Source of the DNA: Candidatus Bathyarchaeia archaeon
GTDB lineage: Archaea > Thermoproteota > CALKCG01 > B24
Reading direction: 5' to 3'
Length of the DNA: 64,000 bases
Assembly: GCA_038870975.1 (NCBI GenBank)
Contig: JAVZJD010000002.1
Span: forward strand, 672,001-736,000
The position numbers were made by a program, and so were the translations under genes. The notes under the pieces were generated by a model that searched no databases, was not told the DNA's origin, and worked only from the letters and a program-made list of their open reading frames with translations. This document shows, in pieces, positions 4,976-59,327 of the stretch (the first letter of the stretch is position 1; every line of letters starts with the position of its first letter).

Positions 4976-5097
4976 CCCGGGGTAGCTCAGCCTGGTAGAG
5001 CTTCCGGCTGTAGACCTCGCCGTGATTGGCGTGGGTCACTCAGCTTACCAGGCGGACAGAAACCGGAGTGTCGTCGGTTCAAATCCGGCCCCCGGGA
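4976..5097 (+). tRNA. tRNA-Tyr(GTA) with a 48-nt intron at 37/38 (5014-5061)
   Basis: Acceptor CCCGGGG/CCCCGGG with C1:G72, anticodon GTA 5010-5012, T-arm GTCGGTTCAAATCCGGC; BHB helix CTGT/ACAG with bulges AGA and AAA; CCA not encoded. Confidence 0.95.
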
Positions 5098-5213
5098 CTT
5101 ACATTCTTCCCCTAAGAAGAATATCCTCTACTTCTTTTCCAATCCATTATATGGATTTATAACAGCTAAAGTCTTATAGTAGCCTTGAAGTTAGAATTAG
5201 ATCGGTGTAAACC

Positions 5214-33238: not shown

Positions 33239-34897
33239 ATGCTTGAGAATACTTATCTCGTGGAAAGAGTATACGTAGTTCCAGAACCTAAGAGGCTGGA
33301 GTTTACAGGTAAATGGTTTAAATTCGACGGTTTCGAAAACTTCCCGAAATTCATAGGTGAAGAGTTTAAAGTACCTGTGGGCGGGTGGAGAATAGTCAAA
33401 GTCGACCGTGATGGGACTGGTGTTAAAGTCAAAGAGGGGTTTGTCGAAGTTTGGGGTGACGAAAAAGTATTCTATGCTACGCTCATACAGCTTATACTGC
33501 AGGGTGATGGACATATTCCAGAGGTTACTATTGAAGAGGGTTTCTTCTTTAAATTTAGAGGATTCCATTTAGACATAGCTAGAGGAGGAGTCCCAAAAGT
33601 TGAGACATTTAAGTCGATCATTAGATGGCTCTACCTGCTCAAATACAACTACTTTGCAGTTTACGTTGAAGACCTATTCCCGTGGAAGAGCTATCCCCAG
33701 ATCGGTATATTGAGGGGTAGGCTAACGGAAGGAGAGTGGAATACCATAGTAGACTACGGTGAAAAGCTCGGTATTGAAGTCTTCCCATCTCTAGAGTTGT
33801 GCGGACACATGGAGCATATACTTTCAATACCTGAGTTTAGACGGTTCAGCGAGTGGCATAGACCTATGGAGGGTTGTTTAGATGTAAGTAATGAGGAGGC
33901 GAGAGAATTTGCATACAGACTTTTAAATGAGGCTTTAGAACTTACACGGTCAAAGTATGTGCATATAGGTGGAGATGAGACTTGGGCACTTGGAAGAGGA
34001 GTGAGTCTGAATAAGACGTGGAAGTTTGAAGGCCCAAGTCTCTACGAGAGACACCATAAGAGACTTGTTGAGATAGCTAGAAGCCATGAGAAAATCCCGC
34101 TGCTGTGGGGAGATATGATATCTGGAATGTATTTAGCTGGGGATAGGGAGAAGTGGGCTGAAGTGCTTCAAAGCGACATATGGAGAGATAGTATAATTGC
34201 CAACTGGGATTACAGCCCAGAGTCTATAGACCACTTTAGGAGGAAGATAGATATTTTTAAGAGTAGAGGGCTTGAACAAGTGGCTTGCCCAGGGCTTTCA
34301 AACTGGGACAGATTCTACCCAAATATCGAAGTAGCTATTGCAAACCTTAGAAACTTCCTTATAGCTGCTAGAGAGAAGGGCATCCTAGGCTTCATGGTGA
34401 CGGCTTGGGGAGACGATGGAGAAGAATGTCTATTTTCATTTCTGAATCCACTGATACTCGCATCCATGGAGATCGCTGAGGGCATTGGAGAATGGGAGGA
34501 GAAGTGGATGGCGCTAACTGGAGAATCTAAAGACGTGTTGAAAGCGAGGCTCTTATTCGGACGTGGAGAAGTCTCGGATATTCTCAAACATGCGTTATAT
34601 TCTACGCCTCTTCTGAGGAGGATTGGACGTGAAAGGCTAGAGCAGATTGTTAAAAACTGGGGAGGACTTCTAGAAGATTTGAAAGACGTTGCTCTACCTA
34701 AAGACCTCGAATTCATAAGGAGGAGTATTGAGGTTGGCTTAAATAAGCTCAGAGGGAAAGCGACAGTTTCAGACTACATTGCATTAGCCCGTTTATACTC
34801 TGAACTGTGGCTTTCAGAGAGAAAGCCAGAAGGATTAGAATTGATCGTTACAAGGCTTTGGGGGGCTGCTGGAAGAACTGACTTAAACCTGCAGTGA
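33239..34897 (+). CDS. GH20 beta-N-acetylhexosaminidase
   Basis: FRGFHLDIARG, HIGGDE, LLWGDM, TAWGDDG. Confidence 0.9.
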   Translation: MLENTYLVERVYVVPEPKRLEFTGKWFKFDGFENFPKFIGEEFKVPVGGWRIVKVDRDGTGVKVKEGFVEVWGDEKVFYATLIQLILQGDGHIPEVTIEEGFFFKFRGFHLDIARGGVPKVETFKSIIRWLYLLKYNYFAVYVEDLFPWKSYPQIGILRGRLTEGEWNTIVDYGEKLGIEVFPSLELCGHMEHILSIPEFRRFSEWHRPMEGCLDVSNEEAREFAYRLLNEALELTRSKYVHIGGDETWALGRGVSLNKTWKFEGPSLYERHHKRLVEIARSHEKIPLLWGDMISGMYLAGDREKWAEVLQSDIWRDSIIANWDYSPESIDHFRRKIDIFKSRGLEQVACPGLSNWDRFYPNIEVAIANLRNFLIAAREKGILGFMVTAWGDDGEECLFSFLNPLILASMEIAEGIGEWEEKWMALTGESKDVLKARLLFGRGEVSDILKHALYSTPLLRRIGRERLEQIVKNWGGLLEDLKDVALPKDLEFIRRSIEVGLNKLRGKATVSDYIALARLYSELWLSERKPEGLELIVTRLWGAAGRTDLNLQ

Positions 34898-56190: not shown

Positions 56191-57333
56191 ATGTCCAAAT
56201 TGATGGAGACGCCTAGAAAAGCTCTGATAGGCATGGTTAAGAAGAACCCACACGATCATAATCTATACTTACTTAAGCTTACAGAATTTAAGTCTCTTGT
56301 TGAAGCCGCCGGCTACGAGGTCTGTGGAACTGTTATTCAAGTTAGGCCTAAAGAGAGTGTAGATTACGTATTCGGCAAAGGAAAAGTTGAAGAGATTAAA
56401 AAACTTGTGGATAAGGAAGGGGCAGATATTTTCGCGGTTTACAACATTCTATCTAGTAAGCAGAAGTATAACTTGGAAAATTACCTGGGAGTCAGTGTTT
56501 TAGATAGGTATGAAGTTACTCTGCAGATTTTTGATAATGCAAGCTCAGATGAGCTTAGCAAGCTTCAAGTAGAACTTGCTAGACTCATTAAAAGTTATCC
56601 ATACGAGAAGCTTAAGGCAAGTTTTAAGTATAGAGTTGGAAGGGAACATCCATGGAAGAGGTCTAGTGGAGAGTACATATATCACTCTGTTGTAAATACG
56701 CTGAGGAGGAGGATAGCCAGAGTTTATGATGAGCTTGAGAAAAGAAAGAAGACTCGTATAGAGCAGATATTCAAGAGGCGTAGGATAGGTTCACCAATAG
56801 TATGCATAGCTGGATACTATAGTAGTGGTAAGACGTCTCTCTTCAACGCTTTAACTGGTTTAAATAAACCTGTTAGTCCTAAGCCGTTTACAACCCTTTC
56901 AAGCAAATACTATCTCACCAATAACTATGGCGAAGTATTCCTTGTAGACACCATAGGTTTTGTACACGACCTAGACCCTAGAATGCTTAAATCATTCGAA
57001 CTGACTTTAAACGACATAAAGTTTGCAGACATTATCATTCTCGTTGTAGACTGCTCAGACCCCCAACCTATAATGTTCTTCCGACTATCTACCTGTTTAG
57101 ATATTTTGAAAAGCCTTGAAGTAGATTCTAACAGGATTGTTGTAGCTTTAAACAAAGTAGACCTTTTAAGTAGAGAGGAGGTCTCCAACCGTTTAAAGAT
57201 TGTATCCGAGTATGTAAACCCAATACCAGTCGTACAAGTATCTGCTAAGGAAAAGCTGAACCTGGAAAAGCTGATGTCTACAGTATTCTTAAAGCTTAAC
57301 CAGCTGAAGGCTCAGAGTTCAAACTTCATATAA
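56191..57333 (+). CDS. hflX: GTPase HflX
   Basis: FGKGKVEEI, LQVELA, G1 GYYSSGKT, FTTL, DTIGF, NKVD. Confidence 0.9.
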   Translation: MSKLMETPRKALIGMVKKNPHDHNLYLLKLTEFKSLVEAAGYEVCGTVIQVRPKESVDYVFGKGKVEEIKKLVDKEGADIFAVYNILSSKQKYNLENYLGVSVLDRYEVTLQIFDNASSDELSKLQVELARLIKSYPYEKLKASFKYRVGREHPWKRSSGEYIYHSVVNTLRRRIARVYDELEKRKKTRIEQIFKRRRIGSPIVCIAGYYSSGKTSLFNALTGLNKPVSPKPFTTLSSKYYLTNNYGEVFLVDTIGFVHDLDPRMLKSFELTLNDIKFADIIILVVDCSDPQPIMFFRLSTCLDILKSLEVDSNRIVVALNKVDLLSREEVSNRLKIVSEYVNPIPVVQVSAKEKLNLEKLMSTVFLKLNQLKAQSSNFI

Positions 57334-57437: not shown

Positions 57438-58524
57438 TTGATGAATGGTGAAAGTTTTTTCACACTCAGGACTATAAAGTGGGAGAATGGAGTCATAGTA
57501 GCAATAGATCAGAAACAGCTGCCTAAGAGGCTTAGGTATGTTAAAATACGTAGTGTGGAACAGCTTTCCGAAGCCATTAAAAACCTCACCATAAGAGGGG
57601 CACCCGCCATAGGCGTTGCAGCTGCGCTTGGATTAGCATTAGTCGCATACAAATCTAGAGCGAAAAGCCTGAGCGATTTCAAAAGGGAAATTGCAGAGGC
57701 ATATGAAAAGCTTAAGTCTACAAGGCCTACCGCTGTAAACTTATTTTGGGCTTTGGATAGAGTTTTTAAAAAAGTTTCTGAAGCTAAAGATCTTAAAGAG
57801 GCTAAGAAGAGTGTAGTAGAAGAGGCTAAAGCAATATGGATGAGAGACTATGAGATAAATAGACAGATAGGAGAATATGGTGCAACACTGCTTAAAGACG
57901 GAGACATAGTGCTCACGCACTGTAAATGGCTTAAGCCAGCAGAATGCGGGAGCACTAGCCACTACTGGATATGGAACAGCACTGGCAGTAATAAGGTCGG
58001 CTATAGCCAGAGGTTTACACATCGAAGTCTATGCAACTGAAACTAGGCCTGTGCTTCAAGGTGCTAGATTGACGGCCTTCGAACTTCTCATGGATAGAAT
58101 ACCTTTTAAACTCATAACCGACAATGCAGTTGGATTTATAATGCGTAAGAAGCTTGTAGATAAGGTCATAGTCGGTGCCGATAGAGTAGCTTTAAACGGC
58201 GATGTTATCAATAAGATAGGGACGTATATGTTGGCTGTTCTCGCAAATCGACATGGGATACCGTTTTACGTAGCCGCTCCGATGTCTACAGTAGACCTTA
58301 AACTGGAACGTGGCGACGACGCGCCTATAGAATTCAGAAGTAGAGAAGAGGTCGTTACAATTTGCGGCTGTAGAATAGCTCCAGAGGGCGTTGATGTACT
58401 AAACCCTGCTTTCGACGTAACTCCTTCAGAGCTTGTGACGGCCATTATAACTGAAAGAGGGGTGTTTAAAGTACCGGACGACTTAGATAGGCTGAGAACC
58501 GCTAGGCTTGGGGAAAGTGTTTAA
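57438..58524 (+). CDS. mtnA: S-methyl-5-thioribose-1-phosphate isomerase / eIF-2B alpha family (355 aa after removing intron 57926-57944)
   Basis: [17 protein letters not shown], restored [48 protein letters not shown]. Confidence 0.92.
57926..57944 (+). other. Putative 19-nt bulge-helix-bulge/loop mRNA intron
   Basis: Helix CTGT/GCAG, AA^A and AA^T, inner hairpin TGGC-TTAA-GCCA, outer CGC/GCG; removal gives CAC TGT AAT GCG GGA (HCNAG). Confidence 0.85.
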
Positions 58525-58541: not shown

Positions 58542-59327
58542 TTGAGGCTTAGAATTATGGACTTGTTCAGCTTCAGGCTACTATTGTCCTTCGGAATTCT
58601 GACACCGTCTACTGTCTTAGACGTAAAGTTTAGAGAAGTTCAAGATGAGTTTTGGATCATTGGGTCTATCATAGGAACCGCTATAAATATTATAGATGTT
58701 TTAACGGGTCAACTTGAACTTTTAAGACTGTTGATATCTTTAACCGTAGGTTGTATAATGGGTTTCCTACTCTTCTATATTGGTTTTTTCGGAGGAGCTG
58801 ACTCAAAGGCTTTGATTTTCCTCAGTTTAACCCTCCCTGAAAGCCCAACTTGGATTCAACAGTTTGGAGTCTCTCTTAACATACCAGTAGTTACAGTGTT
58901 TAATAATGCCATCGCACTTTCCTTATGCTACCCATTGGCTATAGCCGTTTTAAACACGAAAGAGCTGATTATGGGAAGAGACCCATTACGAGGCATATAT
59001 GTCAAAGGCAGGCTACGCAGGACATTATTGTTTTTAACAGTCAAACGTGTATCCTTCGAAGAGCTTAAGAAGAAAGTGGGGTATTATCCTGCTGAGCAAC
59101 CGCTTGAAGAAGACGGAAGAATTCTCAGACAGCCAGTATATTTTATGAAGGCTGAAACCGATAAGGAGGAGTTGCTTCAAAAGCTTGAGCCCTATGCTAG
59201 TAAAGGACTATACCGAGATGGAATCTTAGTTTCACCTACAATACCATTTATAACATTTATAACGTTAGGTTTAGCCTCCCTTCCAGTGGGAGATTTTATT
59301 CTAACTTTCGCTTCACTCATTAGGTGA
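58542..59327 (+). CDS. Prepilin/preflagellin peptidase (A24 family)
   Basis: LDVKFREV, FGGADSKAL, VSPTIPFI. Confidence 0.88.
   Translation: MRLRIMDLFSFRLLLSFGILTPSTVLDVKFREVQDEFWIIGSIIGTAINIIDVLTGQLELLRLLISLTVGCIMGFLLFYIGFFGGADSKALIFLSLTLPESPTWIQQFGVSLNIPVVTVFNNAIALSLCYPLAIAVLNTKELIMGRDPLRGIYVKGRLRRTLLFLTVKRVSFEELKKKVGYYPAEQPLEEDGRILRQPVYFMKAETDKEELLQKLEPYASKGLYRDGILVSPTIPFITFITLGLASLPVGDFILTFASLIR

Follow-up and report, generated by a model that had tools for sequence, protein, structure and literature searches.

A BHB intron in the pre-mRNA of cbf5, the gene of archaeal dyskerin (a pseudouridine synthase), was reportedly described by Watanabe in 2002 and by Yoshinari in 2006. In the literature that was searched, endonuclease-dependent splicing inside archaeal coding sequences has been documented for cbf5 only (Yokobori 2009, PMC2738675; PMC7714728; PMC10485636). 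The cbf5 introns have a length of 16–44 bp, are located at the codon of the catalytic Asp and occur in Desulfurococcales and Sulfolobales (PMC2738675). One further mRNA case is known, in the 5′ UTR of HVO_1309 (PMC7714728). Predictions for other genes exist and more such introns are expected (PMC7714728; PMC10485636).

Here, a 19-nt insert in the mtnA gene of a Bathyarchaeia genome (G000) is described. In all likelihood, the insert is a real and conserved archaeal BHB (tRNA-type) intron in the coding sequence. It is very probable that the tRNA-splicing enzymes cut the mtnA mRNA and rejoin its parts, since such inserts occupy the same codon in at least five related families. mtnA would be a further gene, metabolically unrelated to cbf5, that carries this known type of intron; a literature search on mtnA or Bathyarchaeota in combination with BHB introns found nothing relevant, and no paper reporting the mtnA intron was found.

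The Insert and the Predicted Spliced Product

The window, i.e., the whole stretch of 64,000 nucleotides that was analyzed, corresponds to positions 672001–736000 of contig C2 of G000, a metagenome-type assembly of 1.85 Mb in two contigs that is 93% complete. In this window, mtnA is present in two pieces with a +1 offset. The first ORF runs from 57438 or 57441 to 58040, and the downstream frame stays open between 57910 and 58524. The 19 nt at 57926–57944, which read ATGGCTTAAGCCAGCAGAA, split the gene between CACTGTAA and TGCGGG, with CAC TGT AA on the upstream side and T GCG GGA on the downstream side. When they are deleted, a 355-aa ORF (57441..58524) is obtained that contains the motif THCNAGALAT and no other lesions. 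The predicted spliced junction is CACTGTAA^TGCGGGAGCA, where ^ marks the joint. A sequence-only reading of this DNA had claimed both the two offset ORFs with the 19-nt insert and the restoration of AAT (Asn) in a 355-aa protein without other lesions; the former can be read directly in the sequence and the latter is reproduced by the deletion. The gene is composed as follows:

57441..57925 (+): mtnA exon 1, starting at ATG 57441 (TTG 57438 is possible) and ending in CAC TGT plus the AA of the Asn codon
57926..57944 (+): predicted BHB intron of 19 nt, consisting of A + UGGC-UUAA-GCCA + GCAG + AA
57945..58524 (+): mtnA exon 2, starting with the T that completes AAT (Asn), followed by GCG GGA GCA; stop codon at 58522–58524

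In a profile search, exon 1 matches positions 1–158 of TIGR00512 and exon 2 positions 160–334, which means that the exons abut exactly, with one residue missing between them. The scores for TIGR00512 / NF004326 are 144 bits for exon 1 and 275.9 bits for exon 2, to be read next to a cut-off of 279 that is set for the whole protein. Exon 1 ends in a Cys that aligns to the last residue of THC in PDB entries 6a34, 1t5o and 2yvk, and which we take to be the catalytic Cys (Cys160 in B. subtilis MtnA). The predicted spliced product fits MtnA, the S-methyl-5-thioribose-1-phosphate isomerase, with its THCNAG active-site motif. The gene is single-copy in G000, where its sole paralogue is 48% identical. 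Paralogous copies of the intron were sought across G000 and none were found, so the insert is not a dispersed repeat. As to its surroundings, mtnA is preceded by a gene for an HflX-type GTPase (56191–57333, +) and followed by one for an A24-type prepilin peptidase (58542–59327, +), and the order of mtnA and the peptidase gene is conserved in relatives.

RNA Fold and Predicted Cut Sites

The region 57905–57965 folds with a minimum free energy of -26.7 kcal/mol, compared to a mean of -14.3 for shuffled sequences (z = -4.58), and none of 200 shuffles equaled this value. The following elements were distinguished, with predicted cuts marked by ^:

57907..57918 (+): 5′ strand of the outer exon-exon helix, consisting of UAGUGCUC (57907–57914), unpaired A 57915 and CGC (57916–57918)
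57920..57923 (+): 5′ strand of the central helix, CUGU, i.e., the final nucleotide of the His codon followed by the Cys codon
57924..57926 (+): 5′ bulge AA^A, with the predicted 5′ cut between 57925 and 57926
57927..57938 (+): inner intron hairpin UGGC-UUAA-GCCA, from the fold and the comparison of pairs
57939..57942 (+): 3′ strand of the central helix, GCAG, intronic, from the fold and the comparison of pairs
57943..57945 (+): 3′ bulge AA^U, with the predicted 3′ cut between 57944 and 57945; the variants AG^U and AU^U retain the exonic U
57946..57957 (+): 3′ strand of the outer helix, consisting of GCG (57946–57948), unpaired G 57949 and GAGCACUA (57950–57957)

The outer helix is formed by UAGUGCUC/GAGCACUA (8 bp), a 1x1 loop and CGC/GCG (3 bp). 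As in a BHB motif, the 4-bp central helix CUGU/GCAG lies between two 3-nt bulges on opposite strands and is accompanied by an outer (h) helix of 3+8 bp and an inner (h′) helix of 4 bp. A 57919 faces the 3′ bulge, which gives a 1x3 loop, or a 2-nt bulge if an A-U pair forms; due to this extra A, the 3′ site deviates from a pure 3-nt bulge. The sequence-only reading had proposed the same helices and bulges (CTGT/GCAG, AAA, TGGC-TTAA-GCCA, and AAT facing one A), all of which the fold reproduces. Its anatomy can be kept, and its label, a relaxed bulge-helix-loop, needs a small correction for G000. The 8-bp exon-exon helix 57907–57914/57950–57957 had gone unmentioned. Because the outer helix has 3+8 bp, the motif appears near-canonical, closer to hBHBh′ than to a bulge-helix-loop.

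A cut after the second nucleotide of each bulge would yield AAU (Asn) and the 355-aa ORF. In the variants with AG^U and AU^U as 3′ bulge, it is solely this cut that restores the Asn. The rule of cutting after the second nucleotide of each 3-nt bulge was calibrated on the tRNA introns of G000 itself, and the same cut position is found in its tRNA-Tyr, tRNA-Leu(GAG) and tRNA-Cys introns. The tRNA-Tyr(GUA) gene is located in the window (4976–5098, +) and has a 48-nt canonical intron, ccgg CUGU ag^A ... ACAG AA^a ccgg. This intron is missed by default ARAGORN and found with the intron search on.

The G000 genome was also scanned with a loose BHB definition of our own. About 1.7e-4 of the position/length pairs genome-wide fit this definition (57,683 matches), and so does the single position/length pair that restores the mtnA codon. 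A census of G000 combining BHB motifs with ORF repair recovered mtnA among 930, then 3051 candidates, which were mostly gene-boundary false positives, and it missed the introns of cbf5 and pcm. These were confirmed by direct reading: cbf5 has a 17-nt intron at GGTL^D (C2 ~281,600–281,680, -) and pcm a 29-nt intron at SAPH^M (C2 ~34,480–34,580, -), both with a BHB-like fold. Together with mtnA, they indicate that G000 carries several mRNA introns.

Splicing Enzymes

G000 encodes two EndA subunits (186 and 185 aa) as well as RtcB; the two endA genes are located on contig C1, one at 251.5 kb and one at 270.2 kb. The best matches of the 186-aa EndA are 2cv8 (S. tokodaii) and 3p1z_B (A. pernix), which are catalytic subunits of heterotetrameric enzymes. 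Its Tyr, His and Lys, presumably the catalytic residues, align with the S. tokodaii catalytic subunit 2cv8, and its loop YGKPVGISKPK is aligned to the Crenarchaea-specific loop. The 185-aa EndA has a Pro where the 186-aa subunit aligns its His, and it matches the A. pernix structural subunit too. From these alignments, we infer that the 186-aa protein is the catalytic subunit and the 185-aa protein its non-catalytic partner. Such an endonuclease architecture has been linked to the cleavage of relaxed and of non-tRNA motifs (PMC2738675; PMC5829648; PMC12397907). The broad-specificity type of EndA invoked by the sequence-only reading agrees with a genome that encodes a catalytic subunit with the Crenarchaea-specific loop and a His-less partner.

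In the proposed mechanism, the exon sequences on both sides of the intron would pair in the pre-mRNA to give the outer helix, the region of the Cys codon would pair with the 3′ end of the intron to give the 4-bp central helix, and the intron's own hairpin would serve as the inner helix. A heterotetrameric (alpha-beta)2 endonuclease would cut after the second nucleotide of each bulge (57925/57926 and 57944/57945). RtcB would then ligate the exons, resulting in the Asn codon AA+U, the motif THC-N-AGALAT and a 355-aa methylthioribose-1-phosphate isomerase. Unspliced mtnA mRNA would give rise to a truncated 200-aa product only.

Two further observations concern the genes of these enzymes. The RtcB match is located at C1:62226–65000 (-) of G000 (L033, L034), where profile positions 1–50 and 49–426 are matched ~1.4 kb apart, both inside one 986-aa open frame, which suggests that the RtcB gene carries an intein. 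Secondly, a His-less, beta-like endA orthologue, encoded on the opposite strand, is the immediate upstream neighbor of mtnA in genus g2 and in many intron-less families, at the following loci:

L006:359-889, L039:360-890, L195:3-515, L008-L012, L015-L019, L021, L022, L024, L030: endA-beta beside mtnA

In G000 and its genus, this pair is broken, with HflX upstream of mtnA and endA-beta on contig C1. The adjacency may be chance synteny or reflect a functional link.

Conservation of the Insert Within the Family

The insert is located at the identical codon in 7/7 genomes of family f1 (G000–G003 and G005–G007), a count that covers the genomes of the same GTDB family where mtnA was found, and has a length of 19–22 nt. 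A related ENA contig, L197, has a 23-nt insert at the same codon, and further JGI, ENA and Logan contigs carry the same insert. In the sampled genomes from other families of the order, THCNAG is uninterrupted. In genus g1, the insert measures 19 nt; in three genomes, a G-to-A change disrupts the pair that closes the inner stem. The insert of genus g2 has 22 nt, with UAUAGAU or UUUAAAC as loop. In L197, the central helix is CUGC/GCGG and the inner stem CGGC(U)/(A)GCCG, representing a double change from U-A to C-G. Overall, helices and bulges are invariant within the family and the hairpin loop is free to vary (4, 7 or 8 nt).

Among 12 distinct sequences, 98.7% of the cells are paired, compared to at most 49% when the 3′ partner is slid. 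The same set contains two compensatory pairs and five one-sided changes that still pair, and its pairing score was reached by 1 of 500 shuffles. The outer helix has 100% of its cells paired and includes one compensatory change, from U-A to G-C. As most pairs never vary, the evidence for pairing in f1 is mainly conservation, not covariation.

Distribution and History Beyond the Family

A phylum-wide search covered 401 genomes; the best 150 of 380 matches were listed, and 18 of these were fetched, mostly matches with a short open frame and two that were near-full-length or longer. Fifteen of the 18 are split at the same codon and belong to families f13 (five genomes), f22 (two), f42 (one) and f35 (seven). 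Among the fetched matches, G178 and G314 are intact at this codon. In G349 of family f12 (L207), the sequence reads CACTGCAATGCTGGGG-TCTAGCA, with one base lost just after the NAG codons and no insert; this reflects a genuine frameshift or an error in sequencing and does not represent an intron. The intron is thus present at the mtnA codon in at least five families of the phylum, i.e., f1 and four others. The presence and covariation of the insert in orthologues had been put forward as a check on the sequence-only reading, and the same codon is indeed occupied across the family and beyond, with compensatory pairs.

Taken over 23 genomes and contigs, the introns have lengths of 19, 22, 23, 25, 27, 29, 30, 31, 32, 33 and 34 nt. 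These eleven lengths span every residue modulo 3, and the in-frame ones carry stops. The central helix (CUGY with GYRG) is paired at 4/4 positions in each of the 23 sequences with an intron. AA at the end of exon 1 and U at the start of exon 2 are likewise found in 23/23, and the last two intron bases are AA, AG or AU. The inner stems comprise 3–10 bp and are family-specific, e.g., UGGC, UGGCCC, UGACCCA, UGAGG, UAACCCU, CAGCUCU and CAGCUGGGC. The outer helix of f22 and f35 has 1–2 bp only, making these truly relaxed forms. What is conserved is structure and not sequence, as seen from the compensatory pairs, the differing inner stems and the length range of 19–34 nt. In three intron-bearing genes of f13 (L218, L219 and L222, from G116, G284 and G308), the His of THC is replaced by Leu (ACG CTC TGY). 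This Leu is unusual, the motif being TH/YC in all other relatives read.

In a quick maximum-likelihood tree of MtnA, intron-bearing genes are found in at least four well-supported clades, and the strongly supported branches require no fewer than three gains or losses. The intron-bearing G212 of f13 nests among intron-less genes with 99% support in this tree. The history may consist of a single ancient gain with precise losses, or of several gains at the same site. A single gain in the ancestor of f1 was considered as well and dropped when the phylum-wide search found split mtnA genes in other families.

No full-length protein with more than 70% identity to the spliced MtnA was found among 5.8 billion proteins, which implies that every close relative is split. 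Likewise, a search among proteins longer than the query found no assembled spliced transcript or intron-less close relative above 70% identity. P0124 and P0127, two odd matches in the protein search, are chimeric duplicated assemblies.

Selection and Alternative Explanations

Pairwise dN/dS values are 0.05–0.2 for both exons, with 0.06–0.14 for exon 2 within the genus; dS is 0.25–1.0 within the genus and saturated between genera. In this comparison, which had also been proposed as a check, exon 2 is as constrained as exon 1, so that production of the full-length protein is required. In the alignment of the spliced coding sequences, the longest invariant run spans the junction and has 23 nt, the next one having 8 nt. 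Codons -5 to +1 are single-codon in 11/11 sequences, compared to 20% of the invariant degenerate-amino-acid columns elsewhere, and synonymous sites near the junction vary freely in intron-less relatives. Because the junction codons are fixed and those of intron-less relatives are free, the exon bases of the helix are constrained as RNA, which indicates that a constraint at the RNA level overlies the coding constraint at the junction. The claim of a spliced gene, not a pseudogene, is therefore in line with selection on both exons, an insert that is conserved together with its structure, and a genome that encodes the enzymes.

A more far-reaching reading is conceivable, albeit unlikely: the intron may be old or repeatedly re-gained across much of Thermoproteota and kept to tie MtnA output to the activity of the endonuclease, whose beta-like subunit gene is the conserved divergent neighbor of mtnA in many lineages. 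Taken with the introns of cbf5 and pcm, some Bathyarchaeia would then splice protein genes routinely, possibly in a regulatory way. It is very improbable that cleavage by EndA works mainly as a control point, where inefficient or conditional ligation tunes or destroys the mRNA. For the yeast tRNA endonuclease, cleavage of mRNAs leading to decay has been described (PMC10485636), and the beta-like endA gene that is the divergent neighbor of mtnA in many relatives would suit a regulatory link. However, the equal constraint on exon 2 means that the full-length protein is needed, and the endA-beta/mtnA neighborhood is independent of the intron, as it also occurs in intron-less families and is absent in G000.

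Programmed frameshifting or ribosome hopping past the insert, without splicing of the RNA, is highly improbable. Several features would fit it: the 19 nt of G000 are stop-free in either frame, a +1 shift would be required for the 19-nt as well as the 22-nt form, the insert site has a stable hairpin, and early cbf5 cases were mistaken for frameshifting in the literature (PMC2738675). A fixed offset is nevertheless not what is found across relatives, where the insert lengths cover all three frame offsets. A frame-0 TAG or TAA is present inside the insert in G006 and G007, and stops occur in the 27-, 30- and 33-nt inserts. Moreover, read-through would add 6–11 unconserved residues within the invariant THCNAG, the AGU variants would change the invariant Asn to Ser, and a ribosome hopping from UGU to the downstream UGC would end up out of frame.

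Very little also speaks for mtnA being a pseudogene, or for the insert having arisen as an artefact in assembly or sequencing. Gene callers do give two ORFs with inconsistent starts (157–215 aa), and the sequence comes from a metagenome-type assembly that is 93% complete, but both exons are under strong purifying selection (dN/dS 0.05–0.2), there is no further lesion in 23/23 sequences, and the constraint at the nucleotide level is centered on the junction. The same insert is present in independent NCBI, JGI, ENA and Logan assemblies and is thus not an assembly artefact. Finally, a truly split gene, whose two ORFs (~200 and 157 aa) would be translated separately into polypeptides that assemble into an active enzyme, is hardly credible, given that the gene is interrupted within a single codon of the catalytic motif, that the called starts differ among relatives, and that the exon-2 frame has no ATG, GTG or TTG from the upstream stop to codon 35 (GTG 58051), so that an independent second ORF would lose a conserved 13-residue segment.

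Significance

With an intron as the preferred explanation of the split, mtnA offers a natural series that is much richer than that of cbf5, which extends over at least five families and includes eleven lengths and every frame class. From this series of lengths and bulges, the splice-site rule can be read from sequence alone. In these lineages, mtnA is wrongly annotated as two fragments or as a pseudogene, and the picture of methionine salvage obtained from metabolic reconstructions of Bathyarchaeia is distorted accordingly. The 60-nt motif lends itself directly as a substrate for probing the endonuclease specificity of an uncultured lineage. Besides, the pattern of gain and loss at one codon is a tractable case of how such introns arise and vanish.

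Comparison with Known Introns

The leader intron of HVO_1309 in Haloferax volcanii (Schwarz 2020, PMC7714728) resembles the mtnA intron in that an mRNA is the substrate of the splicing endonuclease. It differs in being located in an untranslated leader, in the alpha2-type of the enzyme and in the lack of frame repair. A closer likeness is found in the pre-tRNA introns at position 37/38, as illustrated by tRNA-Tyr of G000, CUGU ag^A ... ACAG AA^a, next to mtnA, CUGU aa^A ... GCAG AA^u. The canonical hBHBh′ geometry is shared and the enzymes presumably are as well. In mtnA, however, the outer helix consists of coding sequence and not of an anticodon stem, an additional A lies opposite the 3′ bulge, and the product is an mRNA.

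The mtnA and cbf5 introns are both short and non-protein-coding, with a BHB or relaxed BHB at their borders. Both split the codon of an active-site residue in hosts with a heterotetrameric endonuclease, and both have a patchy distribution that involves gain and loss, and annotation routinely overlooks them. The host gene is different, mtnA instead of cbf5 with its catalytic Asp codon, and so are the host organisms, which for mtnA are Bathyarchaeia plus at least four further families of the phylum. For cbf5, RT-PCR and in vitro cleavage have demonstrated splicing; for mtnA, we infer cleavage and ligation from the observed anatomy, conservation with covariation, purifying selection and enzyme genes. 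Altogether, the mtnA intron appears to work like the cbf5 intron, outside that family.
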